Below are positions 508-39,938 of a DNA stretch of 39,938 nt, piece by piece. Both the position numbers and the translations under genes were made by a program. The first letter of the stretch is position 1. Every line of letters begins with the position of its first letter. The DNA lies in IMG/VR virus record IMGVR_UViG_3300045988_121860, positions 1 to 39,938 of that record; one strand, 5' to 3'. Origin of the DNA: a virus. The notes below the pieces were generated by a model. The model saw only the letters and a program-made list of their open reading frames with translations, did no database searches and was not told where the DNA came from.

Positions 508-956
508 TTCCTCCTGGCATTAAATACGGGGCTGGTTTGCATACGCCAGGTGAAGGCCGCCCACGCCTCGTCGTCCCACGCCCGCGCGGGGTCGGCGTCG
601 TCGGCCGCGCACTCGGCGGCGGAGTCAGCAAGGTCCTCCAGGTAGTAGGTCCAGTCGTCTACGCCCGCGTACAGGAACAGGTAGTAGCAGATGGGTATGT
701 GCCCCATGACCGCCTTCGCCCACTCGTGGAAGTCCTCGCCCGTGTAGCCAGCGTCGTCATAGTAGGGACCAAGCCACATCACGACGTGGCTGGCCGCATC
801 CTGGCATGGCCGACACTCCCGCCACTCCCAGATCGCCCCGCGGTCAGCGATCGTCTCCCGGCCGTACTGCTCGCCCTTAGGGATGCGGCGGCCGCAGGCA
901 TCGCACCTGACGCGCCCACGAGAACGAGGCGACCTCTCGCGGATGATGTCGCTCAT
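504..956 (-). CDS. Hypothetical protein with CxxC...CxxC zinc-ribbon-like motif (150 aa)
   Basis: ORF 504..1103 trimmed to Met50 (MSDIIRERS...). This ATG forms an ATGA overlap with the rusA stop at 953-956, and the longer N-terminus is Arg-rich shadow-type sequence. Confidence 0.7.
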   Translation of the reverse strand: MSDIIRERSPRSRGRVRCDACGRRIPKGEQYGRETIADRGAIWEWRECRPCQDAASHVVMWLGPYYDDAGYTGEDFHEWAKAVMGHIPICYYLFLYAGVDDWTYYLEDLADSAAECAADDADPARAWDDEAWAAFTWRMQTSPVFNARRK

Positions 957-1459
957 TCTGCGTCCTCCTGAATCTTCCGCTCCTCGACCTCCAGCCACTC
1001 GGCACAGTTGTAGGTGGCTGACATTCCCTCCTCGTCGACGCGGGAGACGTAGACGAGTACGCCAGGCTTGTAGCCGTCGGCGTAGTCCTTGGACGCGCGC
1101 CACGCCACGATCCTGCTGTCATCCTTGAGGACGCCGGGGCGCTTGTAGGGGGCGAGGGCGTCACCCACGGCACGCTGAAGCTTGTCCAGGTCCGGCTTCA
1201 CATGCGGAAAGACCCTGCCTTTAGCGCTCTTGGGGCGGGGTAGGAGGAAGGCCGTAGTGACCTCGACGGGCCCGTCGTAGCGGGGCTCCCAGCCAGCCTT
1301 GCGTGCGGCGTCCTCGGCGGCTCTGGCGACTCTGAGCCGCCACTGGTCGAGTTCGGGGCCGCGGTCGTGGGTGACGACCACCCGCTGACCCGAGGTGAAC
1401 GCCTTGGTTGAGCCCTCGGTGATCGGCTCACCGGGGACGAAGAAAGAGAATGAATCCAT
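953..1459 (-). CDS. rusA: RusA-family Holliday junction resolvase
   Basis: 168 aa. The N-terminus FFVPGEPITEGSTKAF..., the LLPRPKS segment and the KPDLDKLQRAVGDAL...VLKDDSRIV motifs are typical of RusA endodeoxyribonucleases. Confidence 0.85.
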   Translation of the reverse strand: MDSFSFFVPGEPITEGSTKAFTSGQRVVVTHDRGPELDQWRLRVARAAEDAARKAGWEPRYDGPVEVTTAFLLPRPKSAKGRVFPHVKPDLDKLQRAVGDALAPYKRPGVLKDDSRIVAWRASKDYADGYKPGVLVYVSRVDEEGMSATYNCAEWLEVEERKIQEDAE

Positions 1460-1485
1460 TGGTGTTCCTTGGTTTCGTAGGGAAG

Positions 1486-1878
1486 TTAGGCTGCTAGGAG
1501 AGTGAGCAGGTCGCCCTGCTCGGGCACCGGCGCGGCGTCAGCGTGGCCGGTGAGGTAGCAGGTGCAGCGGGGGTCATGGGTAGCGCGGGCGTCCCACGCC
1601 TGCCAGGAGTCGACGCCGTCGAGGATCGGGACGCGCCCCTGGGTGTCGGTGACCCAGCAGAGGGGCGCGTCGGCCGGCCAGCGGTCCATCCGGTGAGTGC
1701 AGGCGGCGTGGTCACCCGCCTGGCAGTCACCGCAGGCCCCGCCACGAGCGAGGAAGCGGCGGCAGGGGCACCGGTCGTAGAGGAACGGCCACTGGGCGTA
1801 GGCGCGCCGCATGGGAGGCAGCCAGGCGTGCTCTCGCACCCAGGCCGCCTCCTCAGCGGTCATCACGGGGGTAGTCAT
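1486..1878 (-). CDS. Cys-rich hypothetical protein (130 aa)
   Basis: ORF 1486..2190 trimmed to Met105 (MTTPVMTAEE...), which makes an ATGA overlap with the stop of 1875..2147. It carries a CPCRRFLARGGACGDCQAGDHAAC cysteine cluster. Confidence 0.65.
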   Translation of the reverse strand: MTTPVMTAEEAAWVREHAWLPPMRRAYAQWPFLYDRCPCRRFLARGGACGDCQAGDHAACTHRMDRWPADAPLCWVTDTQGRVPILDGVDSWQAWDARATHDPRCTCYLTGHADAAPVPEQGDLLTLLAA

Positions 1879-2147
1879 AGGTCGAAGAGGGGGATGGTCC
1901 CCATGGTCTCGTCGACGTCGTCGGCGGGCTGGTGGACAGCGAGGCAGGCGGGGCAGACGAGCGGGTCGGTGAGGTCGGCGGACTCGACCACGGTGCAGTG
2001 ATCCCTGAGGAACGGCATGCCGGCCATCTTGATCTCGTGGTCGCAGAGGCGGGTGAGCATGAACCAGGTGCCGCCCTGGTAGCGAGTGACCTCCCCGACT
2101 TCGACCAGGTGGCGGCGAATCCGCCCCGGCAGGAGGAGGCGGGTCAT
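1875..2147 (-). CDS. Hypothetical protein (90 aa)
   Basis: ORF track. ATGA overlaps at both ends link it into the early chain (2144-2147 and 1875-1878). Confidence 0.65.
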   Translation of the reverse strand: MTRLLLPGRIRRHLVEVGEVTRYQGGTWFMLTRLCDHEIKMAGMPFLRDHCTVVESADLTDPLVCPACLAVHQPADDVDETMGTIPLFDL

Positions 2148-2659
2148 GTCTCCTCCTGCCAGAGGCCGCGCTCGGCAGCCAGAGCCGCACAGATGGCCTC
2201 GAAGAGGAGGTCGTGGAGGCGGTAGACGATGATCTCCCCGCTAGGGTCGTAGCCCTGGTGGTAGCAGGATGCGAGGTCTCCTAGGGCGCTGAGGAGCCAG
2301 CCGATCCGCTCGGCGGGGTCCACGCCCAGGTCTCGGCCGCGGAGCGTGTATCCGATCATCTTCAGGATGGTCTCTAGATAGCCGTCTGGGTCCCGCTCGC
2401 TGAGGGCCTGGAGGCAGCGTGCGGCGACGATTCGTGCGCGCGCCTGCGCCTGGTCGCTGGGCTTGTGGGTGCGCGCCCGGTGCGCGGACTCGGCCCAGGC
2501 GGTGCACAGTTCTGAGACGTCCCGTGCGATGAGTGCGAGAGGGCCACCAGTCTCAGCGAGCTCCGTCCGACACGGGGGCATCGTGGCTCGGGCCAGGTCG
2601 GCCCGCCTGAGCATGGCCTCGAAATCGTGGCGGCGCTGTTCCATGGTCAGGGCGGTCAT
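2144..2659 (-). CDS. Hypothetical protein (171 aa)
   Basis: ORF track. The composition is non-shadow-like, and there is an ATGA overlap with the upstream stop at 2656-2659. Confidence 0.7.
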   Translation of the reverse strand: MTALTMEQRRHDFEAMLRRADLARATMPPCRTELAETGGPLALIARDVSELCTAWAESAHRARTHKPSDQAQARARIVAARCLQALSERDPDGYLETILKMIGYTLRGRDLGVDPAERIGWLLSALGDLASCYHQGYDPSGEIIVYRLHDLLFEAICAALAAERGLWQEET

Positions 2660-2994
2660 GCGGCGGCCCTCCCCCGCTCGGTGAGGGTGAGGAGGCGCGC
2701 CTTGCGGCCGGAGGGAGTGGTCCAGTAGCGCCCGGTCTCAGCGATGAGCCCCTTGTCCTGCAACTCCCTAACAGCAGTGCGGGCACGAGACGGGGACAAG
2801 ATGCGGTAGGTGTATCGCTCGACGTCGCCGAGGGTGAACATGAGTGGCGGTTGGATTGCGCGGAGCGCCTTCAGGACGACGGCCTGCGATGTGGTGGCGT
2901 CGGTGATGGAGTCGGCGGCCCACTGGCTGGTGACGGGGTCGTTGGCGCGCACAGAACCGCGCTCGCGGGGGTGGATGGTGCTGGCGGTGGTCAT
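2656..2994 (-). CDS. Winged-helix (MarR/PadR-like) DNA-binding protein (112 aa)
   Basis: ORF 2656..3219 trimmed to Met76 (MTTASTIHPRERG...), with an ATGA overlap with the upstream stop at 2991-2994. The C-terminal segment ...RARTAVRELQDKGLIAETGRYWTTPSGRKARLLTLTERG resembles a wHTH wing. Confidence 0.6.
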   Translation of the reverse strand: MTTASTIHPRERGSVRANDPVTSQWAADSITDATTSQAVVLKALRAIQPPLMFTLGDVERYTYRILSPSRARTAVRELQDKGLIAETGRYWTTPSGRKARLLTLTERGRAAA

Positions 2995-3278
2995 GCTGCG
3001 GTCTCTTCCTGGTCGTTGGGCTTCTGGAGTGCGCGGGACTCTCTGTCGCTGGCGTAGCGGGCGGCGAAGGCGAGAGTCATGACGGGCTTGGCTCCGTGTC
3101 GGACCGAGGCCCTGGGCTCGGACAGGAGGACCATGTCGAGTGTGCGGAGGAAATCCATGAGATCGGCGATTGCCTCGCCGCGCTGGTGCGAGACAGGGAT
3201 GTCGGGGAGCATCCGCCATAGGTAGTGGTAGCGGCCGCCGTCTAGGGGGACGATTTTGGAGACTGGGGAGATTGGCAT
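2991..3278 (-). CDS. Hypothetical protein (95 aa)
   Basis: ORF 2991..3317 trimmed to Met14 (MPISPVSK...), which is preceded by GAAAGGAA. The earlier ATG lies inside the upstream gene. Confidence 0.6.
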   Translation of the reverse strand: MPISPVSKIVPLDGGRYHYLWRMLPDIPVSHQRGEAIADLMDFLRTLDMVLLSEPRASVRHGAKPVMTLAFAARYASDRESRALQKPNDQEETAA

Positions 3279-3289
3279 GGGGGTTCCTT

Positions 3290-3478
3290 TCAGGCTTCGG
3301 GGCGGTTGCGCATCCATTCCTCCAGGTCGGAGGCGAGGATGATGTAGCGGCTGCCGGCGAGGCGGGCGGGGAGGTGGAGGTCGGGGTCGGTTGCTTTGAT
3401 GGCGCGGCGGAGGAAGTCGACGGAGAGGCCCGTCAACTCGCTTGCGCGCTGGAGGTTGTAGGCGATGGCGACGCTCAT
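3290..3478 (-). CDS. Excisionase/MerR-type HTH DNA-binding protein (62 aa), candidate Xis or early regulator
   Basis: ORF 3290..3658 trimmed to Met61. MSVAIAYNLQRASELTGLSVDFLRRAIKA...YIILASDLEEWM is the excisionase-family HTH pattern. There is an ATGA overlap with the stop of the 53-aa ORF at 3475-3478. Confidence 0.65.
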   Translation of the reverse strand: MSVAIAYNLQRASELTGLSVDFLRRAIKATDPDLHLPARLAGSRYIILASDLEEWMRNRPEA

Positions 3479-3636
3479 CGGTTCTCCTTTTCGGTGCGGA
3501 TGGTGTGGGCGGCGAGGATGGCGGTGAGGGTGACGGCGAGGAGGAGGACTCCCGTGTGGTGGCCGAGGGCTGCGGCGAGGACGCCCTCGGTGAGGATGGC
3601 GGCGGCGGCCACGGCTCCGAGGATGTAGGTGGTCAT
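3475..3636 (-). CDS. Small two-TM membrane protein (53 aa), not in the ORF track
   Basis: Own translation: MTTYILGAVAAAAILTEGVLAAALGHHTGVLLLAVTLTAILAAHTIRTEKENR. The ATG at 3636 overlaps the TGA of 3633..3947 (ATGA), and its own TGA overlaps the ATG of the Xis-like gene (ATGA). Confidence 0.6.
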   Translation of the reverse strand: MTTYILGAVAAAAILTEGVLAAALGHHTGVLLLAVTLTAILAAHTIRTEKENR

Positions 3637-3947
3637 GCCGCGACCACCTCGACGTCATCGCCCAGGGGGTAGTGCGATTCGATGGTCCAGCGGCCGACGG
3701 TGCGGCTGACGCCCTGGAAGATCATCCCGTGGGATGTGAAAATGACATCTGGGGTGAGGCCGAGAAGGTCGGCGAGGGCCTGCGATCCGCCATCGTAGGC
3801 GTGGATGTCGACCTGGAATTGGCCGCCGCGGTGCGCCCAGGCGTCGACCTTATAGATGTCGATGCAGTTGCGCTCGGCCTCGGCGATGAGGGCGTTCACG
3901 AGAGGCATGGCCTCGCTGATGGGGTGCTGGGTGGTGGGGTTGCACAT
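3633..3947 (-). CDS. Hypothetical protein (104 aa)
   Basis: ORF track. It is the second gene of the early operon and has balanced composition. Confidence 0.7.
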   Translation of the reverse strand: MCNPTTQHPISEAMPLVNALIAEAERNCIDIYKVDAWAHRGGQFQVDIHAYDGGSQALADLLGLTPDVIFTSHGMIFQGVSRTVGRWTIESHYPLGDDVEVVAA

Positions 3948-3963
3948 GGGGTTTCCTTAGGGG

Positions 3964-4185
3964 TTAGGCGGCTTCTGCCTGGGTGATGATCTGGCTGGCG
4001 GTGGTTCCGAGGGCGGTGGCGATGCGGCTGATTTCGTCGAGTTGGAGGCCGCGGCCGGTTCGGAGTCTGCGTTGGAGGGTGGAGCGGGGGATGTCTGTGG
4101 CCTTGCTGAGTTGGAGGAGGCTGGTGCCTGTGGTCTCCATCTGGTGGGTGATCGCCCGAATGATGGGCGGTGGGTTGGTGTCCAT
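3964..4185 (-). CDS. Cro-like HTH regulator heading the early operon (73 aa), probably leaderless
   Basis: ORF 3964..4239 trimmed to Met19 (MDTNPPPIIRAITHQMETTGTSLLQLSKATDIPRSTLQRRL...). It has a classic XRE-type HTH. The ATG lies 7 nt after a TACTGT -10 box and there is no SD. Confidence 0.7.
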   Translation of the reverse strand: MDTNPPPIIRAITHQMETTGTSLLQLSKATDIPRSTLQRRLRTGRGLQLDEISRIATALGTTASQIITQAEAA

Positions 4186-4192
4186 GTAGACC

Positions 4193-4222
4193 ACAGTAGG
4201 TGCCCATTTGGGCACCTGGCAA
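4193..4222 (-). promoter_or_regulatory. Early promoter with operator O1: -35 TTGCCA, 18-bp palindromic spacer GGTGCCCA-AA-TGGGCACC, -10 TACTGT
   Basis: Read on the minus strand: TTGCCA (4222-4217), operator 4216-4199 (perfect 8-2-8 inverted repeat), TACTGT (4198-4193). The ATG of the Cro-like gene is at 4185. Confidence 0.65.
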
Positions 4223-4267
4223 GTCGCTGGGAAACCCATCAGAACTTCGTTACCGTTCCGTCATCTT

Positions 4268-4284
4268 GGTGCCCAATGTGGCAC
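4268..4284. promoter_or_regulatory. Imperfect second operator-like site GGTGCCCAATGTGGCAC
   Basis: It shares the GGTGCCCA half-site with O1, and the second half is degenerate. It lies 10 nt upstream of the plus-strand HTH start codon. Confidence 0.4.
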
Positions 4285-4293
4285 AGTGGAGAC

Positions 4294-4575
4294 ATGAGCA
4301 CGCGAGCAACGAATCCTGGGGTCGGCCTCAACGCCGCTGCGGCCGCCGAACTGCGCACGCTCCGCGAGGAGCGGCACATGACCGTGAGCGGCCTCTCCGA
4401 CGCCTCAGGTATCCCCAAGCGCTCTCTCATCCGCCTACTACAGGCCGAGCGGCCCATCACCTTCGAGCCCCTGTGTGCGCTTGCTGATGCCCTCGGGGTC
4501 AGCGCCTCCACGATCATCTCCCGTGCCGAGGACCGCCTACGCGAGGAGCAGCGGATGCCTGCGTTCTCCTGCTGA
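4294..4575 (+). CDS. CI-like XRE-family HTH repressor candidate (93 aa)
   Basis: The ATG at 4294 is preceded by GGAGA and is in frame with ORF 4042..4575. LRTLREERHMTVSGLSDASGIPKRSLIRLLQAERPITFEPLCALADALGVSASTII is an XRE HTH. The gene is divergent from the Cro-like gene and is the only plus-strand gene outside the 28-30 kb cassette. Confidence 0.7.
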   Translation: MSTRATNPGVGLNAAAAAELRTLREERHMTVSGLSDASGIPKRSLIRLLQAERPITFEPLCALADALGVSASTIISRAEDRLREEQRMPAFSC

Positions 4576-4596
4576 CCGCACCCCATAGACGACGAA

Positions 4597-4629
4597 AGAG
4601 CCCCACCCAGATTCACTGGGCGGGGCTCT
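4597..4629. terminator. Bidirectional stem-loop between convergent genes
   Basis: AGAGCCCCACCCAG-attca-CTGGGCGGGGCTCT, 13 of 14 bp paired. On the minus strand it is followed by TTTCGTCGTC. Confidence 0.6.
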
Positions 4630-4702
4630 AGTCATCTGACCTCACCGACGATTGTCGGTGGCGGAGGCCGGTCAGACGGTAACGATTTCGTCAAAGAATC
4701 GG

Positions 4703-5212
4703 TCACGCGGCACCGAAACGCAGTGGCTCCTTCCCCTTGCGGGCACGACGCTCATTGATAAGGTCGCCAGTCGTCTTCTGCCACCAGCGCTTCGGTGCGG
4801 GAGCGACGTCGTCGGCTGGCTCGACGGCGGGCGACTCGGCCTCCCGCGCGGCCTTCTCAGCCGCGGCCGCCTGCCCCTGACGGACGATGGTCATGGCCTT
4901 CGCCGCGAAGGAGCGAGCCTCCCCGTAGCGCTTCACGTCGAGTTCGACGACGTGCGCATCATCGACGGTCTCGACGATGAGGAACTTCGTCGCCGCGACC
5001 TTCTTCTTGATGGCGAGGGCGAAGATGCCGACGGCGGCGACGCGGGTGGCGGTGAGTCGCTTGCTGGCCGCCTGACCGTCCTCGACGACGATGTCGACGA
5101 CGTCGGCCGGGGGGATGACGGTGAGGCGCTTCGGGACGCCGACTGAACCATCGGAGAAGACGGTGATCTTGCCGTCGTTCGCCTTGAACTGGGCGGAGTG
5201 GAAAAGTGACAT
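4703..5212 (-). CDS. Orphan protein between integrase and repressor (169 aa); candidate lysogen-expressed accessory gene
   Basis: ORF 4703..5230, with the start probably at Met7 (MSLFHSAQFKANDGKITVF...) after AAAGGAAAC. It has a central hydrophobic stretch ATRVAAVGIFALAIKKK and a basic C-terminal tail. I recognise no family with confidence. Confidence 0.6.
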   Translation of the reverse strand: MSLFHSAQFKANDGKITVFSDGSVGVPKRLTVIPPADVVDIVVEDGQAASKRLTATRVAAVGIFALAIKKKVAATKFLIVETVDDAHVVELDVKRYGEARSFAAKAMTIVRQGQAAAAEKAAREAESPAVEPADDVAPAPKRWWQKTTGDLINERRARKGKEPLRFGAA

Positions 5213-5226
5213 GGTGAGGTTTCCTT

Positions 5227-6477
5227 TCATGGGGTTGGGGTGGAGGTGAGGCCGAGGCGGGGTGCGACGGCCTCAAGAGCTTGGCGGGCCTGATCCAGGT
5301 CGGCGTGCTGGTAGCCCATCGACGTGGTGATCGCGGTGTGGCCCATGATGGCGATGACGACGGTGGCGGGGACACCGGCGGCCATGAGGAGTGTCGCCGT
5401 CGAGTGGCGGGCCTCGTGCACGAGATAGTACCCCCCATCCTCCTTGTGGACGCCAGCGACGTCCTGGAGGGCGCGCCACGCCAGGCGGTCGTCCTTTTTT
5501 GACCATGGGCCGCCGTCGGGGCGGGGCCACACGAGCCCGTAGGGGGACTCGGGGCAGTGGTCCTGCCAAGCGGTCAGGGCCGCTGCCATCCACGGCACCA
5601 GCGGCAGGACGCGGGAGCCCGCCGCGGTTTTGACCGGCCCCCAGTAGTAGCCGTCCATCAGGTGCTCATAGGTGACGCCGTCGGTGCCGGTGATGTCCTC
5701 GGCGGCGGTCATCTCTACGAGCTGGCGGTCTACGGTGAGCGTGCCGGCGTCGAGGTCGATCCGGTCCCAGGTGAGTCCCAGGCACTCCCCCTGCCTCATC
5801 CCCTGGAGGAGGGCAGCGACCCACCGGGAGGCGTCCTGCACGCTAGCGAGGCGGCGGGCGCGCTGGGTCGGGCCACTGGTGGCGTCGGGCAGGGGAGGCC
5901 AGGTGTCGGGCTCGGTGGCGGCCTTCAGGAGGGTGGCGGCGCTAGCGGCGGGGATGGCCTGCCGCTTGGAGGCGGCGGCCTTGGGCTTGGGGGCGAGCAT
6001 GACGGAGTCGGGGATGCGGTGGCCCTCGACGATGGCGGCCCTGAGGACGCGGTGGAGGATCAGCCGGACGTAGCGGATCGACGTCGACGACTTCCCGTCG
6101 CGACGCATCGTGGCCTCCACCTTGCGTAGATCGGTGACGGTGAGGTCGGTGAGGCGGCGGTGCCCGATGGTGGGGGTGACCCACTTACCGAGGAGGGCGA
6201 GGTCGTTGCTGTAGGTGCGGGGGCGGGCGGTGCGCTTGTAGTCGACGGCCCAGGTGTCGATCCATGCCTTGAGGGTGGTGCGTGGGCTGACGACGGTGGA
6301 CTGCTGCTCAGCGAGGACCTCCCGGCGGATGGAGCGCAGGGCGCGCTTGGCCTCGGCCTCGGTGGCTCGCGCTCGGGTGATGCGGCGTCGGCCGCCGGAT
6401 GGCGTGTAGCCAGCCTCGACGCTGGCTATCCATTTGCCGTCTTTGCGCTGGTAGACGGTGCCTTCCCCGTATGCCAT
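5227..6477 (-). CDS. int: Tyrosine integrase
   Basis: 416 aa. The N-terminal arm-binding-type segment is GTVYQRKDGKWIASVEAGYTPSGGRRRITR. The C-terminal catalytic region is ...HEARHSTATLLMAAGVPATVVIAIMGHTAITTSMGYQH (R..HxxR..Y family pattern). Confidence 0.9.
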   Translation of the reverse strand: MAYGEGTVYQRKDGKWIASVEAGYTPSGGRRRITRARATEAEAKRALRSIRREVLAEQQSTVVSPRTTLKAWIDTWAVDYKRTARPRTYSNDLALLGKWVTPTIGHRRLTDLTVTDLRKVEATMRRDGKSSTSIRYVRLILHRVLRAAIVEGHRIPDSVMLAPKPKAAASKRQAIPAASAATLLKAATEPDTWPPLPDATSGPTQRARRLASVQDASRWVAALLQGMRQGECLGLTWDRIDLDAGTLTVDRQLVEMTAAEDITGTDGVTYEHLMDGYYWGPVKTAAGSRVLPLVPWMAAALTAWQDHCPESPYGLVWPRPDGGPWSKKDDRLAWRALQDVAGVHKEDGGYYLVHEARHSTATLLMAAGVPATVVIAIMGHTAITTSMGYQHADLDQARQALEAVAPRLGLTSTPTP

Positions 6478-6500
6478 CGGATAGCCCTCCCTGGTCGGCG

Positions 6501-6521
6501 GCTAGCCATTCGGCTAGCCAT
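6501..6521 (+). promoter_or_regulatory. Two direct GCTAGCCAT repeats (candidate arm-type Int sites, int-proximal arm)
   Basis: GCTAGCCAT at 6501-6509 and 6513-6521, 24-44 nt upstream of the int start codon. Confidence 0.5.
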
Positions 6522-6593
6522 CTGTGGCCCAGGATAGCATATGAGGGGGCAAGCAGGTAACCCGTGATGTGGCTTGATTCTGCGGCTTCCCGG

Positions 6594-6640
6594 TCGGGCT
6601 GGCGGGATTTGAACCCGCGGCCCCCTGCTCCCAAAGCAGG
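6594..6640 (-). other. attP core: 3' portion of a tRNA-Pro(UGG) gene (anticodon stem to discriminator)
   Basis: The minus strand reads CCTGC-TTTGGGA-GCAGG (anticodon stem-loop, anticodon TGG, G37), GGGCC, GCGGG-TTCAAAT-CCCGC (T arm), CAGCCCG-A. No complementary 5' acceptor strand (CGGGCTG) is present upstream, so this is a fragment and not a gene. Confidence 0.75.
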
Positions 6641-6686
6641 TGTCAACCCAAGGGTGACCCCCTGAAAACACTCACTAAGCCACCGA

Positions 6687-6720
6687 CCAGCCATCCCAAA
6701 ACCAGCCATCAACTAGCCAT
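6687..6720 (+). promoter_or_regulatory. Three direct YAGCCAT repeats (candidate arm-type Int sites, distal arm)
   Basis: CCAGCCAT at 6687-6694, CCAGCCAT at 6702-6709 and CTAGCCAT at 6713-6720, in the same orientation as the pair at 6501-6521. Confidence 0.5.
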
Positions 6721-6781
6721 CTTTCCGGAACGCCGCACAAACCGCGGAATCACGCCACAAACAGCCCACAGAGACGACGAA

Positions 6782-6819
6782 AGGCGCCCCCACTACCTAC
6801 TCGGGTAGTGGGGGCGCCT
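6782..6819 (-). terminator. Late-operon intrinsic terminator
   Basis: Perfect 16-bp stem AGGCGCCCCCACTACC / GGTAGTGGGGGCGCCT with a 6-nt loop. On the minus strand it is followed by TTTCGTCGTC. It lies 19 nt after the last late-gene stop. Confidence 0.8.
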
Positions 6820-6837
6820 AGGCCTCATATGGGCCTC

Positions 6838-7101
6838 TCAGTCGTCAGCGAGGTCCCCGATCGGAGACTCCCCAGGACCACGCGGCAGGTCCCCCAAGGG
6901 CGCCCCACGGTCGAGGGCGATCGCGCGCGTCCTACGTGCGACCATCTCCCACTGAGCGGCCTCTCGACGGGCGGCCTGCACCTCCGTCTCCCGCCCCTGA
7001 CGGGCGCGCCAGAGAGCCCGGATAGCGGACCCGATCTGCCCGACCAGAGTAGCGGCGAGGCCGCTCGTGATGACGACGGCGATCAGGTCGGCTGCTCGCA
7101 T
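6838..7101 (-). CDS. Small lysis-cassette protein with N-terminal TM segment (87 aa)
   Basis: ORF track. The sequence is MRAADLIAVVITSGLAATLVGQIGSAI followed by a charged coiled region. It is the last gene of the late operon. Confidence 0.6.
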   Translation of the reverse strand: MRAADLIAVVITSGLAATLVGQIGSAIRALWRARQGRETEVQAARREAAQWEMVARRTRAIALDRGAPLGDLPRGPGESPIGDLADD

Positions 7102-13764: not shown

Positions 13765-14462
13765 GGCATCCCCTGCACGCGCTTAGCGACCTCAAGCGCA
13801 GACCACGCCTGCCAGCCCGGAGTCTCCGGGTGCGCCTCACCGTAGTCCTGCCACTCACCCCAGGTAGTCACCGGGACAGCCCCCATCGGGGCACCGTCCT
13901 CGCGGGGCTCGTGCGCCGTCCACTTCACCGTCAGCTCGATCAGATCATCGAAGAGACGCCTCCGAGAGACGCCGGTGACGATGACCATCCTCGGCGGCAC
14001 CCCAGCAGTCGGGGCGGCCGGAATCAGCATGATCGGGTGGTGAGCCTGGAGCACCCACCACAGGTAGGGCTCGGCGTCGGGGTGGCAGGCGATGACGCCG
14101 CTCCCCGTCTCGGGCTCATCCCGGAGTGCCCACCGGGTCACCCCGCCGACGCGACTGGCCTTCGAGGACCACTCCACGGGGTCCTCATTGCTGACGTAGA
14201 TGAGGCCGGGTGCGCTGCGGCCGTCCCTGCCGGCCACGTGCACCCCGTACCAATCGCCGACGGGGCGGGTGAGCGACACAGTGTCGCCCCCCGCCCTGTA
14301 GGTGACCTCGACGCCGGGCGCGGCCAGGCCGTCAGCGATGAGGTGCTGCCCCTCCCCGAGGCGGGCCAGCACACGGTCACCAGCGGTCACCGTGACCGGC
14401 CCATCCACCAGCAGGGACGGCAGGCCCGACGTCGTGCCGATCCAGCCCTTGAGCGCCATCAT
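13761..14462 (-). CDS. Distal tail protein (Dit) candidate (233 aa)
   Basis: ORF 13761..14612 trimmed to Met51 (MMALKGWIGTTSGLP...) after GAGGAG. It is the first gene after the tape measure, and the longer N-terminus is Arg-rich shadow sequence overlapping the TMP gene. Confidence 0.6.
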   Translation of the reverse strand: MMALKGWIGTTSGLPSLLVDGPVTVTAGDRVLARLGEGQHLIADGLAAPGVEVTYRAGGDTVSLTRPVGDWYGVHVAGRDGRSAPGLIYVSNEDPVEWSSKASRVGGVTRWALRDEPETGSGVIACHPDAEPYLWWVLQAHHPIMLIPAAPTAGVPPRMVIVTGVSRRRLFDDLIELTVKWTAHEPREDGAPMGAVPVTTWGEWQDYGEAHPETPGWQAWSALEVAKRVQGMP

Positions 14463-27259: not shown

Positions 27260-27290
27260 CCGGGCGGGGGGTATATCCCCCCTGTCCCGG
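27260..27290. other. G/C-run palindrome in the HNH-terS gap (candidate cos/terminase recognition element)
   Basis: CCGGGC-GGGGGG-TATAT-CCCCCC-TGTCCCGG with a perfect core GGGGGGTATATCCCCCC at 27266-27282. A G7 run lies at 27244-27250. Confidence 0.3.
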
Positions 27291-27306: not shown

Positions 27307-27627
27307 CTACCATGTTTCGTGGTCGGTTGTTGGTTTGATTCTGGCCGTTTGGTTGCGTTTCCGTTTTGGTGGCCGCACTTTTCTGCCGTTTCCTTTGTGT
27401 TGGTTGCATTTTCGGCAGATGATTTGAATATTGTCTAATGAGTCGTTTCCGCCTCGACTGTGAGGCACGATGTGGTCGGCCTCAGGGCTACTAGGCAGTA
27501 GGCTAGCGTCCCAGGCGAGGCGGACGTGGCAGAGCGGACAGTGCTCTAGTCCTGCCGCGCGCGCGCTGCGCTTGGCCGCTGCTGCGTTGTGGAGCCAGCG
27601 TGTGGTGCCGGTGCGTGAGGTGGTCAC
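27307..27627 (-). CDS. HNH endonuclease (106 aa), packaging-associated
   Basis: ORF 27307..27732 trimmed to the GTG at 27627, 5 nt after GAGGAGG. CPLCHVRL...ADHIVPHSRGGNDSLDNIQIICRKCNQHKGN is a canonical HNH motif. It lies immediately upstream of terS/terL. Confidence 0.85.
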   Translation of the reverse strand: MTTSRTGTTRWLHNAAAAKRSARAAGLEHCPLCHVRLAWDASLLPSSPEADHIVPHSRGGNDSLDNIQIICRKCNQHKGNGRKVRPPKRKRNQTARIKPTTDHETW

Positions 27628-27653
27628 GTCGTCCTCCTCGCGCGCGCGTGCGC

Positions 27654-27694
27654 ACGCGGCCCGCGTCACGCTGCTGTGCGTGAGCGGGCCGCGT
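27654..27694 (-). other. Very stable hairpin in the late-operon leader
   Basis: The arm ACGCGGCCCGCGTCACGC (27654-27671) pairs with GCGTGAGCGGGCCGCGT (27678-27694): 17 bp with one bulge and a 6-nt loop. It lies directly upstream of the HNH SD. Confidence 0.5.
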
Positions 27695-27737
27695 CGCTTC
27701 TCCCCATTCCCTTCTCCCCAGAAGGGTAGCAACAGTG

Positions 27738-27768
27738 GAGCCCAGCAGTCTTGTGGACGGCTGGGCTC
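27738..27768. other. Second hairpin in the late-operon leader
   Basis: GAGCCCAGC (27738-27746) pairs with GCTGGGCTC (27760-27768). An inner GTC/GAC pair extends the stem. Confidence 0.45.
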
Positions 27769-28047
27769 TGACAGTTTGCCTATGTTCGTATGATGCGTGT
27801 TTCAGTGGCGATGTGCAAGTGGTGGTCGTGCCTGGCGTGTTGCGGTTTGGTTACGGGGTCGGGGTGGTTTGTTGTGGGGTGCCCCCGTCATTCATCCCCT
27901 GCCCCTGCGTTGATATCCCTGCCCCCCTTGTTTAGTGGGGGTGCCCTTGTTTCGCGAGGGGGTGGGTGTCCATGATGGGCGCCCCCTTGCTGTAGCCCCG
28001 CCCCCTTTAGTGTGGCCCACCCCACTGTTTGCATACACCCCCTGGGC

Positions 28048-28077
28048 TTGCACCCATTCGGTATGCAGGCATACACT
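28048..28077 (+). promoter_or_regulatory. Cassette promoter PA: -35 TTGCAC, 18-bp spacer containing palindrome GTATGC-AG-GCATAC, -10 TACACT
   Basis: TTGCAC at 28048-28053, palindrome at 28061-28074, TACACT at 28072-28077. AAAGGAA and the ATG at 28114 follow. About 80% identical to 29265-29330. Confidence 0.6.
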
Positions 28078-28113
28078 AGAGCCATCGGAACAGACAGAAA
28101 GGAACTCCCCAGA

Positions 28114-28368
28114 ATGTCCGCCACCATCGCAGCCGCCACCTACCTGGCCCGCTACTACGGCCCCGAGGCCGTCACCGTCTACTCCCTCCCCGACGTCGAA
28201 GGTGAGGCTATCGATGTCCACTGGGCCGGCGGACTCGCCACAATCCACCAAGTGAACAGCGCCGTGTGGCGCGTGAACTGCGCCCTCGCCCACCAGGACG
28301 TGAACCTCCTCCGCCTGCCGAAGACGGTCGAAGAGATGATCCTCGCCGCCAAGGCGACCACCAACTGA
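28114..28368 (+). CDS. Cassette protein 1, hypothetical (84 aa)
   Basis: The ATG at 28114 is in frame with ORF 28012..28368 and is preceded by AAAGGAA. No family recognised. Confidence 0.65.
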   Translation: MSATIAAATYLARYYGPEAVTVYSLPDVEGEAIDVHWAGGLATIHQVNSAVWRVNCALAHQDVNLLRLPKTVEEMILAAKATTN

Positions 28369-28379
28369 CCGCCCCCGTT

Positions 28380-28402
28380 GCCCGCCCCGAAATGGGGTGG
28401 GC
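28380..28402 (+). other. GC hairpin between cassette genes 1 and 2
   Basis: GCCCGCCCC-gaaat-GGGGTGGGC, 9 bp with one G-T pair and no U-tract. Confidence 0.4.
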
Positions 28403-28423
28403 GCCCCCAGAAAGGAAACCACC

Positions 28424-28750
28424 ATGGCCCGCTACAACTGGAACCCTGCCACCGCCTCCGACTACCCCGGCGCTGTCCTGGTCGCTACCGCTGACGATGG
28501 CGCGGTGATCCGCCTCCACCTGGATGCCTTCGACGACGAGGTTGAGGCGGCCTTCGTGATCGAGACGCACCCCGGCCGGTTCGTGACGACGGAGGAGTCG
28601 TCTTGCTGGCCGGCGGTGGAGCGCTACGTCCCGCGCGAGGAGTGGACGCCTGAGATGTACGGCAGCCTAGACGTCCCGTCCATGCGCCACCCCGACCCGG
28701 CGGTGACGGAGGCGATCGACGTCTACCGCCGGGCGATGCTGAACGACTGA
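28424..28750 (+). CDS. Cassette protein 2, strongly acidic hypothetical (108 aa)
   Basis: The ATG at 28424 follows GAAAGGAAAC and is in frame with ORF 28397..28750. By my count there are 20 Asp+Glu against 8 Arg+Lys. Confidence 0.65.
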   Translation: MARYNWNPATASDYPGAVLVATADDGAVIRLHLDAFDDEVEAAFVIETHPGRFVTTEESSCWPAVERYVPREEWTPEMYGSLDVPSMRHPDPAVTEAIDVYRRAMLND

Positions 28751-28760
28751 ACACCCACCT

Positions 28761-28786
28761 GCCCGGCCCTACCGTGGGGGCCGGGC
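28761..28786 (+). terminator. Stem-loop after cassette gene 2
   Basis: GCCCGGCCC-taccgtgg-GGGCCGGGC, a perfect 9-bp stem with no clear U-tract. Confidence 0.4.
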
Positions 28787-28805
28787 CTGACCTAGAGAGG
28801 AGAAG

Positions 28806-29045
28806 ATGATGAGTGCTGAGACTGAGCGCGCATTGGAGGAGGCTGTGATGGCGCACGTGGCCTCCGAAGGAGATGGTGACATGGTTGGCGCGTGGCTGCT
28901 GCTCGCACAGACGGAGCGGCTCACAGATGCGGAGGAGGGGCGTAGCGCCTATCACTCCCACCTGCGGGGGAACTCGTTCACGATGGTGGGCATCTGCGAC
29001 GCCTGGAAGCACTCGGTTATGGCGAGCACGGTGAGGGACTCATGA
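28806..29045 (+). CDS. Cassette protein 3, acidic hypothetical (79 aa)
   Basis: ORF track. GAGAGGAGAAG lies upstream, and the stop overlaps the start of gene 4 (ATGA). Confidence 0.65.
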   Translation: MMSAETERALEEAVMAHVASEGDGDMVGAWLLLAQTERLTDAEEGRSAYHSHLRGNSFTMVGICDAWKHSVMASTVRDS

Positions 29046-29260
29046 ACAACCAGGAGGTCCCGAGCTTGTTGGAGTTGGACCGCCTGCGCTGTGAGGTGGA
29101 GGCGGTTCGTGAGGTGCTGGATGAGATTGAGAACCAGCGTCGGGCCGCGGCGGTGGCTGCGGTGCGTGCCGGGAAGGGTAAGGCTCCGGTGGCGCTCGCG
29201 GCGGGGGTGACTCGGCAGACGTTGGACCGCTGGCTTGGTGTGTGGCAGCGCACATCTTGA
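29042..29260 (+). CDS. Cassette protein 4: small coiled-coil + C-terminal HTH protein (72 aa), candidate cassette regulator
   Basis: ORF track. KAPVALAAGVTRQTLDRWLGVW has an HTH pattern, and the N-terminal LLELDRLRCEVEAVREVLDEIENQRR is coiled-coil-like. Confidence 0.6.
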   Translation: MNNQEVPSLLELDRLRCEVEAVREVLDEIENQRRAAAVAAVRAGKGKAPVALAAGVTRQTLDRWLGVWQRTS

Positions 29261-29264
29261 GAGG

Positions 29265-29294
29265 TTGACCCCATTCAGTATGAGAGCATACACT
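29265..29294 (+). promoter_or_regulatory. Cassette promoter PB: -35 TTGACC, 18-bp spacer with GTATGA-GA-GCATAC, -10 TACACT
   Basis: TTGACC at 29265-29270, palindrome at 29278-29291, TACACT at 29289-29294. This is a duplicate of PA including the 5'UTR up to the ATG at 29328. Confidence 0.6.
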
Positions 29295-29327
29295 TAAGCC
29301 ATCGGGAACGAAGAAAGGAACCCCAAA

Positions 29328-29582
29328 ATGAGCACCATCCGCAAGGCCCTCAACACCATCAAGAACACCGACTACGCCGCCGCTGGCCAGATCAAGGTCA
29401 TCGACCTCGTGGATGGCACGATCGCCATCGGCCCCCGCGGCCAGTACGTCCAGGAGAGCCGCGACCTCGGCCTCATCATCAACGGCCGCGTGGCCGCCTG
29501 GCCGGACGATGACCCCACCGACGCTGACCTCCGCGCCGCCGTCGCCGCCCTCCTCGGCTACGACCCTGAGACCGCCAACTGA
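29328..29582 (+). CDS. Cassette protein 5, hypothetical (84 aa)
   Basis: ORF track. AAAGGAA lies upstream. It is the same length as protein 1, with a similar first few codons. Confidence 0.65.
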   Translation: MSTIRKALNTIKNTDYAAAGQIKVIDLVDGTIAIGPRGQYVQESRDLGLIINGRVAAWPDDDPTDADLRAAVAALLGYDPETAN

Positions 29583-29670
29583 CCCGCCTACCCGCCCGGA
29601 TGGTCGCAGCGGGGGTTCGGCTCCCCCGCCGGGCACGACCCCTAACCCAACTACCCCAAAGAGAACAGTC

Positions 29671-29898
29671 ATGAACCTGTACCCCACACGCAACGAAGCC
29701 ATCGAGCACGAGATTCGCGACGTGCTACGCCAGAGCGAGGACGCCACCGGCCCGATCGATGACGCCTTCGACATTGACGCCATCGCCGACGAGACCATCA
29801 CCATGTTCATCACCAAGGGCAGGATGATCACCTACTGCCTGAGCCCCGACATCTACCCAAGCAAGTTCTGGGAGATCGTCGAGAAGCACACCCGCTGA
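29671..29898 (+). CDS. Cassette protein 6, acidic hypothetical (75 aa)
   Basis: The ATG at 29671 (MNLYPTRNEAIEHEIRD...) is in frame with ORF 29413..29898, whose longer N-terminus is Pro/Ser/Thr shadow sequence. Confidence 0.6.
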   Translation: MNLYPTRNEAIEHEIRDVLRQSEDATGPIDDAFDIDAIADETITMFITKGRMITYCLSPDIYPSKFWEIVEKHTR

Positions 29899-29909
29899 CC
29901 GAATACGGG

Positions 29910-29938
29910 AGGCGCCCCACCTGGCTGGTGGGGCGCCT
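29910..29938. terminator. Bidirectional terminator between the cassette and the end of the early operon
   Basis: AGGCGCCCCACC-tggc-TGGTGGGGCGCCT, followed by TTCGTC on the plus strand. It lies between convergent stops at 29898 and 29942. Confidence 0.7.
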
Positions 29939-29941
29939 TCG

Positions 29942-30196
29942 TCATGTTCGTAGGACCAGTAGCGGCCCTTCCTCTCTCGGGTGGTCCGGTAGCCTCATGA
30001 TGGCGCATCCAGGACCGAAGGGGACGGCCTTGGCTGGCAGCCTGCCGGGCCGGTTGATGGCGATGGCGACGCGCGCGATCGCGCCTGCTAGGCGGTCCCA
30101 CTCGGCGTCCTCGGTGTCACGCTTGGCTTGCTCCTCGGCGCTCGCGGCCACCCAGGGCGCTTCGGCCCATGGGTGCGCGATCTCGACGTCGGTCAT
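29942..30196 (-). CDS. Hypothetical protein (84 aa), last early-operon gene
   Basis: ORF track. ATGA overlap with the upstream stop at 30193-30196. Confidence 0.6.
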   Translation of the reverse strand: MTDVEIAHPWAEAPWVAASAEEQAKRDTEDAEWDRLAGAIARVAIAINRPGRLPAKAVPFGPGCAIMRLPDHPREEGPLLVLRT

Positions 30197-30408
30197 TTCA
30201 TGTCTCCGATTGCGTCTCGGGCTTCGGTGAGCATGCCGATCACCTTCCCTATGGCCTCGGTGGCGTCGGCGGTTGGTAGGCCGGCTGCGAGGCCGCCGAT
30301 GGCGGCGGCGTGCCCCATCATGGCGGCGGTGAGGCTTCCCTTCATGGATGCCTTGACGGCTTCCTCGGCGACGGCGGCTAGCGCCGTCTGGATCATCTCT
30401 GGTGTCAT
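30193..30408 (-). CDS. Hypothetical Ala-rich protein (71 aa)
   Basis: The ATG at 30408 (MTPEMIQTALAAVAEE...) is in frame with ORF 30193..30870 and forms an ATGA overlap with the stop of 30405..31172. Confidence 0.55.
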   Translation of the reverse strand: MTPEMIQTALAAVAEEAVKASMKGSLTAAMMGHAAAIGGLAAGLPTADATEAIGKVIGMLTEARDAIGDMK

Positions 30409-31172
30409 GCTGCCCTCTCCTTTCGTCTTGCGGCGGCGGCGAGTAGGTCGCCGACGTGGTATCTGCCTTCGTGGTCGGTGAGGTGGCCCCTGTGTTTCCA
30501 GAGTCGGATGGTACCGGGGCGTGTGGGGTACCCGGCTTGGGTGAGGAGCCGGGCCCCTTCGTCGGGGGTGACTAGCCAGTCGGCGGCCGCCTCCAGGTGG
30601 CTCGCGAGGAGCGGCTGGAGTTCCCACTGGGTGTCGCAGGCCGGGCAGCGCGCCCACGAGGATCCCGCCGCCGCGTAGACGGGCTGGTCGCAGATACCCC
30701 GGTCCCCCAGGTCGGTGAGGCACCGCCCGTAGAAGCGAGCATCCTCGGGGACGTCCACGAGCGCCGTGATGGCCCGGATAGCGGCCAGGACCTCGGGGAT
30801 GAGGGTCGCTAGCTCGGGCCGGCCGGGGTGCGCGGACGCGCCCCTGAGCGCCCATGAGACCTCCGTCCATGTCTGCGGGGTGTTGGCCCCGAGGAGGTCA
30901 TGTGTCGCCCACTTCGCCCATTTGAGTAGCGTCCTCTCGTGGGCGCTCGCGGCCTGGACGACGCCCAAGCGGACCGGGGGTCGGCTGCACGGCGTGGTGG
31001 CAGCCCCGCCGCCTTGGCCGCGCCTGAGCCCGGCCTTGGCGGCGTCGAGGGCGCCCATGAGCGCCACGATGCCGTGGGAGGCCTCTGCGAGCCGCTGGCA
31101 GGCCGTGACGCTCACGTACCGGTCACCTCGCAGCGGCTCCCCCGTCACGGGACAGGAACGGGCGTCAGTCAC
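30405..31172 (-). CDS. Zn-ribbon + C-terminal MerR/excisionase-type HTH protein (255 aa); candidate late-gene regulator
   Basis: ORF 30405..31304 trimmed to the GTG at 31172, which overlaps the upstream stop region. CDQPVYAAAGSSWARCPACDTQW is a zinc ribbon. LVTPDEGARLLTQAGYPTRPGTIRLWKHRGHL is HTH-like. The start is uncertain. Confidence 0.5.
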   Translation of the reverse strand: MTDARSCPVTGEPLRGDRYVSVTACQRLAEASHGIVALMGALDAAKAGLRRGQGGGAATTPCSRPPVRLGVVQAASAHERTLLKWAKWATHDLLGANTPQTWTEVSWALRGASAHPGRPELATLIPEVLAAIRAITALVDVPEDARFYGRCLTDLGDRGICDQPVYAAAGSSWARCPACDTQWELQPLLASHLEAAADWLVTPDEGARLLTQAGYPTRPGTIRLWKHRGHLTDHEGRYHVGDLLAAAARRKERAA

Positions 31173-38632: not shown

Positions 38633-38685
38633 TTTTTACGGTCCTTTGTTCTGGGGATTGGGTAGGTTGGGTTGGGGTGCCCGCG

Positions 38686-38729
38686 TTGCCCACGTGGACA
38701 ACCTTAGGTGCCCATTTGGGCACCGTCAA
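38686..38729 (-). promoter_or_regulatory. Second early promoter with the same operator: -35 TTGACG, spacer = GTGCCCAAATGGGCACC, -10 TAAGGT, plus flanking imperfect operator TTGTCCACGTGGGCAA
   Basis: On the minus strand: TTGACG at 38729-38724, perfect palindrome at 38724-38707 (identical 18-mer to 4199-4216), TAAGGT at 38706-38701. A second 6-2-6 site TGCCCA-CG-TGGACA lies at 38687-38700, centred 22 bp away. Confidence 0.6.
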
Positions 38730-38855
38730 GGCGAGATGGCGGCTGTTACGTGTTCGTGATGGGGGGTGGGTGGCGGGGCTGACCGCACAGCGCGTTAACG
38801 CGCGTGAATCCACCCCGAAATCGCACGACCCTACGCCGGCATCGTCAAACGGGGA

Positions 38856-39539: not shown

Positions 39540-39938
39540 AGGCCCTCCTTCGCGAACTGCTCGGCCAGGTCGTAGAACACCTGCCCGCCCTGTGGTCGCC
39601 CCTGGGGGCGTTGGGCTTGGAGGCGGAGGGTGTCGAACTTTTGGCGGAGCTTGGGGACGCTGAGGACGTTGGCGCGCCAGAAGTCGTTGCCCTCAGCCCA
39701 GTCGATGATGCGGGTGATCTCTTCGACGGTGCGGTCGTCTCGGTCGATCATGAGGCGTGCCTGCGTGCGCCAGGCGGCGGTGACGCGTGGGGCTCGTCCG
39801 GTGCGACGCTGGACGCTCGCGGCCATGGCGTCGCAGACGGCGTCGACGTCGGGGCGGGGGTCTTCGACGGCGTGCAGATCGACGTCGTCGATCGCTTCAC
39901 TGTTCCCCTGTTCCCCTGTTCCCCTGTTCCCCTGTTCC
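39536..39938 (-). CDS. Replication initiator, C-terminal part (continues from 1..507; 39884-39938 duplicates 1-55)
   Basis: ORF 39536..39826 stays open upstream to the window end in the same frame (…EAIDDVDLHAVEDPRPDVDAVCDAMAASVQ…). The C-terminal WAEGNDFWRANVLSVPKLRQKFDTLRLQ resembles the DnaD/replisome-organiser C-terminal motif. Confidence 0.7.
   Translation of the reverse strand, partial: EQGNRGTGEQGNSEAIDDVDLHAVEDPRPDVDAVCDAMAASVQRRTGRAPRVTAAWRTQARLMIDRDDRTVEEITRIIDWAEGNDFWRANVLSVPKLRQKFDTLRLQAQRPQGRPQGGQVFYDLAEQFAKEGL
39884..39938. repeat. 55-nt exact copy of 1..55 (circular-closure overlap)
   Basis: GTCGTCGATCGCTTCAC + 4 x TGTTCCCC + TGTTCC is identical at both ends of the window. 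Confidence 0.95.

Follow-up and report, generated by a model that had tools for sequence, protein, structure and literature searches.

A cassette of six small plus-strand genes (g1 to g6, 28114-29898) was found between the HNH/terminase operon and the end of the early operon in a phage genome (IMG/VR virus record IMGVR_UViG_3300045988_121860), which was analysed as a window of 39,938 nt corresponding to the entire metagenome scaffold ZHAN15-1_SAMEA2737886_METAG-scaffold_200, whose name suggests a human cohort, oral or gut. The cassette was classified as a putatively autoregulated phage accessory operon resembling both morons and the operons that combine anti-CRISPR genes (acr) with genes for anti-CRISPR-associated regulators (aca). 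The preferred explanation, with an estimated probability of about 0.45, was a self-contained accessory cassette, independent of the immunity repressor of the phage, made up of an acr-aca-like operon and a co-regulated neighbouring unit. The original prediction had proposed an acr-aca-like anti-defence or moron island: the acr-aca architecture (a conserved helix-turn-helix (HTH) protein, an invariant inverted repeat and variable cargo) was borne out, but the anti-defence function was not, as family, structure and phage database searches gave no homology to such families. The regulatory half of the acr-aca interpretation was well supported by sequence comparison with relatives.

Conservation of the cassette and variability of its cargo

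When viral contigs were searched with g4, 30 related loci were obtained, mostly on contigs of ~35-41 kb; 24 of the 30 loci spanned the whole cassette. A plus-strand cassette of 1.2-3.1 kb was present at the same place in all 30 relatives, with HNH and TerS on one side (74-100% identity to the window where the locus reached them) and the same early genes on the other, among them R3, a 236-aa protein found in 24/24 full-span loci (83-92% identity). The HTH gene g4 was the sole cassette gene shared by all relatives (30/30 loci, 24/24 full-span loci; 68-85% identity) and was the last gene of the cassette in many of them. It had been suggested to search with this gene as a marker next to variable small genes in other actinophages; g4 was accompanied by varying cargo in 30/30 relatives.

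As in acr-aca operons, the cargo varied around the constant regulator, each gene being present in 6-17 of the 24 full-span loci, with bimodal identities: g2 in 17 (~55%, 75-78% or 93-94% identity), g3 in 16 (~55% or 92-95%, with one at 82%), g1 in 9 (51-58% or 99%), g5 in 9 (76-90%) and g6 in 6 (56-88%). None of these genes can be essential, because each was missing from 7-18 of the 24 sister cassettes. At least 14 plausibly real small-gene families were represented across the relatives; a crude clustering had yielded 19 groups, of which one was g4 itself, one was an artefact of an overlapping frame and several were doubtful singletons. The g2 and g3 allele classes occurred in all four pairings, and the linkers formed by a hairpin and a ribosome-binding site (RBS) kept 78-89% identity where the DNA identity of the adjoining gene alleles was 66-76%, indicating that recombination falls between the genes. 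The hairpin after g1 was kept even beside g1 alleles of 51-58% identity.

Gene content and anatomy

The six plus-strand genes originally predicted all exist, with the predicted sizes, and a second, independent gene caller found the same six genes in this contig and in identical contigs from other samples. They were g1 (28114-28368; 84 aa, isoelectric point (pI) 5.4, no known family), g2 (28424-28750; 108 aa, pI 4.4, net charge -12), g3 (28806-29045; 79 aa, or 78 aa if the start is at 28809; pI 4.8), g4 (29042-29260; 72 aa, pI 8.0, net charge +1; a long helix followed by an HTH, and the proposed repressor at the operators O1 and O2 described below), g5 (29328-29582; 84 aa, pI 4.4) and g6 (29671-29898; 75 aa, pI 4.6). 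The stop of g3 overlapped the start of g4 as ATGA (29042-29045), confirming the predicted coupling, and the predicted charge of g2 was exact (20 D+E vs. 8 K+R). All six proteins had been described as net acidic, which held for five of them but not for g4.

All other called genes of the window were on the minus strand, as had been stated, with the exception of one gene for a CI-like HTH protein (~4297-4575, plus strand), divergent from a Cro-like gene (3964-4185, minus strand).

The GC hairpins predicted after genes 1, 2 and 5 were present, and there was a further one after g6. The hairpin after g1 (28379-28403, plus strand; 10-bp stem, -21.8 kcal/mol) was followed by the g2 RBS; the others were located after g2 (28761-28786, plus strand; -25.2 kcal/mol), after g5 (29609-29629, plus strand; -26.0 kcal/mol) and at the end of the cassette (29908-29940; 14-bp stem, -33.6 kcal/mol), between g6 and the convergent last early gene (29942-30196, minus strand). 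All four lacked a U-tract and were passed over by the terminator scan, so that their role as terminators is only putative. The terminal hairpin is proposed to be a bidirectional terminator, as in the original prediction. All four hairpins were conserved in relatives, the terminal one with loop variation at the cassette end. A scan of the cassette against Rfam detected no known RNA family.

Promoters and a shared putative operator

A 41-nt promoter element was found twice (28048-28088 and 29265-29305); the two copies were 80% identical, for a chance expectation of 0. P1 (28048-28077, plus strand) comprised a -35 box TTGCAC (28048-28053), an 18-nt spacer and a -10 box TACACT (28072-28077), and P2 (29265-29294, plus strand), located 5 nt past the g4 stop, a -35 box TTGACC (29265-29270), an 18-nt spacer and a -10 box TACACT (29289-29294). 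Both contained a palindrome: O1, GTATGCAGGCATAC (28061-28074), in the P1 spacer and overlapping the first three bases of the -10 box, and O2, GTATGAGAGCATAC (29278-29291), at P2. A second conserved box, AGCCATCGG, was located at or just past the predicted P1 transcription start (28080-28088, plus strand) and again downstream of P2 (29297-29305, plus strand). The prediction of near-consensus promoters with a palindrome in the spacer was thus right about the elements and their palindromes, but "near-consensus" was generous, with 9/12 consensus positions matched in P2, the sole plus-strand promoter called by the scan, and ~7/12 in P1.

Across the 31 phages there were 44 copies of this promoter (1-3 per phage), which kept the arrangement TTG...GTATG-N4-CATACACT..AGCCATCGG (consensus TTGnnncCATTnnGTATGnnnnCATACACTnnAGCCATCGG). 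The half-sites GTATG and CATACACT were invariant in 44/44 copies and the box AGCCATCGG mostly so; the central four bases and the flanks varied. The palindrome, a putative inverted-repeat operator of the kind found in acr-aca operons, overlapped the -10 box in P1, in P2 and in every one of the 44 copies. The left half-site GTATG lies in the spacer, where RNA polymerase has few demands on the sequence, and its invariance points to a bound protein. In the relatives, too, the first cassette gene had this promoter element ahead of it. P2 was present together with the g5 module, a few bases past the g4 stop; otherwise the terminal hairpin or another gene was found there.

The sequence GTATG-N4-CATAC was confined in this genome to the two cassette promoters. 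The CI/Cro operator was another palindrome (GGTGCCCA-TT-TGGGCACC): CI-type operators (GGTGCCCANNTGGGCACC) were located at 4199, 4268 (degenerate), 38685 (degenerate) and 38707, with one 3-mismatch match at 14125 and no match in 27600-30000. Control of the cassette by CI was rejected because the CI operator differs from the cassette palindrome and has no match in the cassette.

One of these sites, an exact copy of the CI/Cro-type operator (GGTGCCCATTTGGGCACC, 38707-38724, with the degenerate copy at 38685-38702), was located in a gap inside the early operon (38633-38855), far from the immunity switch; the operators compared at the switch were 4199-4216 and 4268-4285, and 0.58 matches were expected. 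A further promoter under immunity-repressor control may thus exist near 38707. Some relatives (L025, position 4638, and L035, position 4618) had a third copy of the cassette operator-promoter further upstream, running straight into an ATG (TACACTatAGCCATG), so that the transcript may be leaderless.

The HTH protein g4

Gene 4 had been read as encoding an HTH protein and its AF2 model agreed with this (pLDDT 93.8): a long N-terminal helix (residues 9-42) was followed by the two HTH helices (47-54 and 58-71). In the relatives, the HTH core GVTRQ was invariant and the following T[LV]D[RK]WLG nearly so. The family comprised 196 metagenome protein clusters and was narrow, since the g4 profile gave only four matches below 1e-10 among 1.84 billion representative proteins. 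Matches to Pfam were weak and below the cut-offs (HTH_28, HTH_23, HTH_29), the only NCBIfam match was a chance-level one to an IS630 transposase (E 0.027, 13.9 bits for a cut-off of 100), and the single match among PDB sequences was to RelI (9SDC; E 0.047). The fold search against PDB gave no significant match: Fis dimers came closest (best E 0.25), along with sigma region 4 and the DNA-binding domain of DeoR. The viral models most similar to g4 were those of small proteins labelled "HTH DNA binding domain" from phages of Gordonia, Mycobacterium, Arthrobacter and Microbacterium.

In the 101 loci fetched, the exact palindrome was almost confined to those encoding g4 or a g4-like HTH. Two of these loci belonged to an unrelated phage lineage, in which a T4-type terminase and a DUF3310 protein adjoin the g4-like gene (L099, IMGVR_UViG_3300006247_000187, 1-6884; and L100, 3300022485_000031). 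In L099, the C-terminal HTH of a 165-aa protein was g4-like (E 3e-7), and the 6.9 kb contained 5 exact palindromes and 2 near ones, vs. 0.04 expected; those inspected were directly upstream of gene starts on either strand (e.g. 1610, 3592, 4344 and 5417). We consider it likely that g4 represses P1 and P2, presumably as a dimer that sits on the palindrome and covers the -10 box.

Proposed mode of action

According to the preferred explanation, P1 and P2 would be promoters of the host-sigma type, P1 driving g1-g4 and P2 driving g5-g6; P1 transcripts that pass the hairpins after g1 and g2 would also reach g5-g6, because there is no hairpin between g4 and P2. Both promoters should fire on naive DNA at any immunity state, since they are similar to those of the primary sigma factor and have no CI operator. 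Translated from the P1 transcript, g4 would dimerise, bind both palindromes and block RNA polymerase, so that a burst of expression on naive DNA would be followed by a low level under g4. The five cargo proteins would be exchangeable, host-directed accessory factors, and the conserved hairpin and RBS linkers would let alleles or whole genes reassort between phages. For the cargo, the guess we favour is a role in early counter-defence or in host takeover; a strictly counter-defensive role is a serious candidate, though on balance doubtful.

Position in the genome may be relevant to timing. A cos site is expected in the region 27262-27287 by synteny with the Propionibacterium freudenreichii phage G4. 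In cos phages, the end packaged last is the end that enters the cell first, and by the same synteny the cassette would be ~1-3 kb from that end, a location that would therefore suit an immediate-early function.

A bolder version, speculative and in our view unlikely, is that of a gene-shuffling counter-defence platform of oral Actinomyces phages, in which new defence inhibitors would be found among the cargo and g4 would found a new Aca-like family, usable in searches. The operator-promoter and the hairpin-RBS linkers would then work as standard joints for gene swaps by homologous recombination, like an integron without an integrase, and g1, g2, g3, g5, g6 and the mini-GNAT described below would be new inhibitors of Actinomyces CRISPR-Cas, restriction and other defence systems. 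To our knowledge, no anti-defence proteins have been described in Actinomyces phages.

If the regulatory model is true, g4 and its 14-bp operator would be a searchable marker for accessory-gene islands in very common human oral phages. The dozen or more small cargo families are concrete anti-defence candidates. The conserved linkers are also a tidy case for studying the exchange of single genes between phages. Should the cargo be unrelated to defence, the cassette would be one more autoregulated accessory operon, of an ordinary kind; it is a useful lead in an under-studied host group rather than a surprise.

Results that weigh against this explanation

Several results argued against the preferred explanation. 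The cargo gave no significant match to Acr, anti-defence or defence families (Pfam, PHROGs, PADLOC, NCBIfam, PDB and GenBank phages), and g4 belonged to no known Aca family (Pfam, NCBIfam, and PDB sequence and fold searches, with no dedicated Aca HMM set; fold matches all above E 0.2). None of the 50 PDB fold entries listed for g4 was described as an Aca protein (Aca1-Aca13). No covariation of HTH and operator was seen among the relatives, both being invariant, so that the link between g4 and the operator is one of co-occurrence only. The early region of these phages was mosaic in general (R5, 32-72% identity; R1, in 8/24 loci), and variability alone is for this reason no mark of an arms race. 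Around half of the sister cassettes opened with a pair of membrane proteins of 38 and 60 aa (e.g. L014, 4936-5318; L061, 8943-9325), which fit superinfection exclusion better than counter-defence. The structure model of g2 was unusable (AF2 with 21 close homologues; pLDDT 48.6).

The base composition of the cassette was the same as that of the rest of the genome (GC 0.59-0.69 vs. ~0.67; GC at third codon positions (GC3) 0.78-0.93 vs. a genome mean of 0.835 ± 0.062). Acidity was not distinctive either: of the small early proteins of the phage, 47% had a pI under 5, and the median net charge per 100 residues was -3.9. The argument for anti-defence from small acidic proteins, made originally, is weak for this reason, and acidity was rejected as uninformative with respect to DNA mimicry or Acr function.

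Alternative explanations

The first alternative is a prophage-expressed moron island for lysogenic conversion or superinfection exclusion, with CI-independent promoters active in lysogens and g4 keeping expression at a steady low level; its products would benefit or protect the lysogen rather than the infecting phage. In terms of anatomy, this reading fits as well as the preferred one. The cassette has its own putative promoters and terminal hairpin, is opposite in orientation to its neighbours and shares the strand of the CI-like gene; P1 and P2 have no CI-type operators, which mark the immunity switch and the second early site; and in phage G4, the nearest GenBank relative, the early operon leads to HNH without a cassette. 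The membrane-protein pairs with which many sister cassettes begin, and a distant g6 homologue between lysin and integrase in one locus (L083), also count in its favour. However, base composition and GC3 were like those of the rest of the genome, a sister lineage had close g6 homologues in its early lytic operon, the cargo matched no PADLOC defence model, and the six window proteins had no membrane segments. We regard this alternative as rather improbable as set out here, though it and the preferred explanation can both hold, because acr-aca operons are also expressed in lysogens.

The second alternative, somewhat less probable, is that of ordinary early accessory genes unrelated to defence (host shut-off, metabolism or replication helpers), with g4 as a Cro-like shut-off regulator. 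The g6 family was widespread in early operons of actinobacterial phages, a mini-GNAT came first in some sister cassettes (Acetyltransf_7, E 2.7e-5), and mosaicism was general in the early regions of this lineage. No direct counter-argument was found; this is a less specific version of the preferred explanation.

The third alternative concerns only the regulator: the palindrome might not be the site of g4, but be bound by a host factor or another phage regulator, or be part of a specialised promoter, g4 acting otherwise. The lack of covariation between the invariant operator and the invariant HTH leaves room for this, and the box AGCCATCGG shows that the promoters carry information beyond a single operator. 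Nevertheless, the palindrome and a g4-like HTH were found together in two phage lineages and were both missing from other related loci, the palindrome occurred in this genome only in the cassette that encodes g4, and the CI/Cro operator was a different sequence, all of which make another binder improbable.

Finally, g3-g4 as a toxin-antitoxin pair of the RelS-RelI type, with the coupled HTH antitoxin in second place and autorepressing, would agree with a weak alignment of g4 residues 19-64 to RelI 30-75 (PDB 9SDC, E 0.047) and with the gene order and ATGA coupling of Rv2663-Rv2664 (PMC13284704), but was rejected as very improbable: g3 matched no PDB chain at E up to 5 (RelS included) and is acidic (pI 4.8), unlike RNases of the RelE/BrnT type; g4 has no equivalent of the alpha-1 helix and loop of RelI, and so lacks the toxin-covering helix, given that the alignment is offset by 11 residues and the first helix of the model starts at residue 9; and g4 occurred without g3, preceded by other genes, in 8/24 sister cassettes.

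Comparison with known systems

In Aca operons, a DNA motif lies over the promoter, the 5' untranslated region (UTR) contains a conserved element and adjacent operons can be under the same regulator (PMC13551039; PMC6765145). The cassette resembled acr-aca operons (Aca1, Aca2, Aca10, Aca11/13) in its strong promoter with an inverted repeat on the promoter core, in the adjacent operon with the same operator, in the succession of small unrelated genes and a small, often translationally coupled HTH gene with cargo varying around the regulator, and in the conserved element at the start of the 5' UTR (PMC13551039, PMC6765145). As is usual in these operons, g4 was the last gene of the P1 unit and was ATGA-coupled downstream of g3. 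The differences were that g4 is a long helix with a C-terminal HTH (nearest fold Fis, not significant) rather than an XRE-type protein, and belongs to no described Aca family; that no cargo gene of the cassette is a known Acr; and that almost every gene is followed by a GC hairpin. The cassette therefore has the architecture of an acr-aca operon but lacks both defining features, a regulator from a known Aca family and an Acr that is known or demonstrated. We know of no described Acr from the oral Actinomyces host clade.

The moron was reportedly defined by Juhala, Hendrix and colleagues. Like the lambdoid morons (lambda bor and lom; HK97), the cassette would be an autonomous unit, with promoter-like elements and a terminal hairpin of its own; it lies between genes that are neighbours in a relative, and like lambda bor it is near the expected cos/terminase junction and in the opposite orientation. 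In phage G4, HNH (gp69) directly follows gp66-gp68, with no reverse-strand genes, and is the last gene before the right end. Unlike the lambdoid morons, the cassette separates these genes in all 30 close relatives, with different cargo, instead of sporadically; its composition is not atypical; and it has six genes in two modules with a dedicated autoregulator.

The P-left promoter of mycobacteriophage L5, near the right end of the genome, drives many small non-essential genes leftward and is overlapped by an operator. The cassette promoters are similarly overlapped by a putative operator and would drive small non-essential genes; in L5, however, the operator belongs to the immunity repressor gp71, whereas the cassette has no CI-type operator and encodes its regulator inside. 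The resemblance to RelS-RelI of M. tuberculosis (PMC13284704, PDB 9SDC) is that of a small protein with a long helix and an HTH, second in a coupled two-gene unit; the cassette differs in having no toxin homologue, no toxin-covering N-terminal helix in g4 and a partner, g3, that is dispensable in relatives.

Cargo proteins and their homologues

The description of the six window genes as having no recognisable functions was correct as far as family, structure and phage database searches are concerned. Neither megablast of the region nor tblastn of the six proteins matched anything among GenBank phages, and no PDB sequence search (single proteins, and profiles for g5 and g6) went below E 0.04. 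Three genes were confined to this phage lineage: g1, with two allele classes; g2, whose 21 protein clusters came exclusively from metagenomes and shared 71% identity or more; and g3, with two allele classes, missing from 8/24 full-length sister cassettes. The g5 gene always accompanied P2, and a 71%-identical homologue was found behind the same operator-promoter in L099/L100.

The g6 gene belonged to a wider, uncharacterised family (consensus YTTRxEAI...DIDAIADE...FW.IV), found also in distant actinobacterial phages and prophages. Homologues of 70-88% identity were encoded in a forward early operon together with a single-stranded DNA-binding protein in a sister lineage of 43-45 kb, so that at least this cargo gene is used in lytic growth. 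A g6-type domain (YTxRxxAI...D[IV][DE]AIA.E...FW.IV) was also the N-terminal part of proteins about twice as long in other actinobacterial phages (L083, 4636-5160; L085; L088), estimated at ~130-140 aa from their likely start codons; the L083 gene was the one located between lysin and integrase.

Ten cargo proteins of sister cassettes were compared with Pfam, PHROGs, PADLOC and NCBIfam, giving nothing but one sub-threshold GNAT match. This was a 109-aa mini-GNAT acetyltransferase (family F10; motif RQGEGIARAL), encoded by the first gene of several sister cassettes (L037, 4929-5258; L019, 4718-5047) but not in the window; its Acetyltransf_7 match was slightly under the Pfam curated cut-off, and no sequence similarity to PDB chains was found. 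The anti-CRISPR protein AcrVA5 is a similarly small GNAT.

In the sister cassettes that begin with the membrane-protein pair, the leader before the pair contained a short hairpin, ATCGGG-AACGAA-CCCGAT, directly after the AGCCATCGG box, which recalls the 5' UTR RNA motifs of Aca operons (PMC13551039).

Phage genome, host and flanking features

The window had a 55-nt terminal direct repeat (1-55 and 39884-39938), from which it was taken to be the complete, circular assembly of a phage genome. The phage is a high-GC temperate siphovirus, with a gene for a tyrosine integrase at 5227-6477. TerL was at most 57% identical to that of the P. freudenreichii phages G4, Doucette, E6 and B22, and its relatives in bacterial genomes were all at most 46% identical (Bifidobacterium, Microbacterium, Cellulomonas and others). 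Among the g4 matches listed, the sole organism name from a genome record was that of a hypothetical protein of Actinomyces massiliensis, and no prophage copy of g4 turned up in a scan of representative bacterial genomes. An oral Actinomyces is the probable host, an assignment based on that one named g4 homologue, as the genome scans gave no close prophage.

A tRNA-like sequence (6594-6689, minus strand; Rfam RF00005, 29.7 bits, barely over the threshold) adjoined the integrase gene. It is probably the attP core, pointing to integration in a host tRNA gene.

On the right of the cassette, the conserved 236-aa early protein (30405-31115, minus strand) was a weak syntenic homologue (E 0.003) of gp66 of phage G4, which is annotated in RefSeq as a sigma-70 family factor; it had a Cys pair and a C-terminal HTH-like region, and no Pfam match. 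On the left, a GC hairpin (GGGCGGGGGGTATATCCCCCCTGTCC) followed by a T-rich run was located between TerS and HNH (27262-27287).

The left border of the cassette was a non-coding stretch of ~420 bp from the HNH start to P1 (27628-28047), not part of the cargo, of which the first ~200 nt were near-invariant in relatives and the remainder was G/T-rich and less conserved. The near-invariant part, just upstream of the HNH start (27628-27830; compared in 10 relatives), contained two hairpins with compensatory substitutions in their stems. It might act as a structured leader for the late HNH/terminase operon, or as an element involved in packaging.

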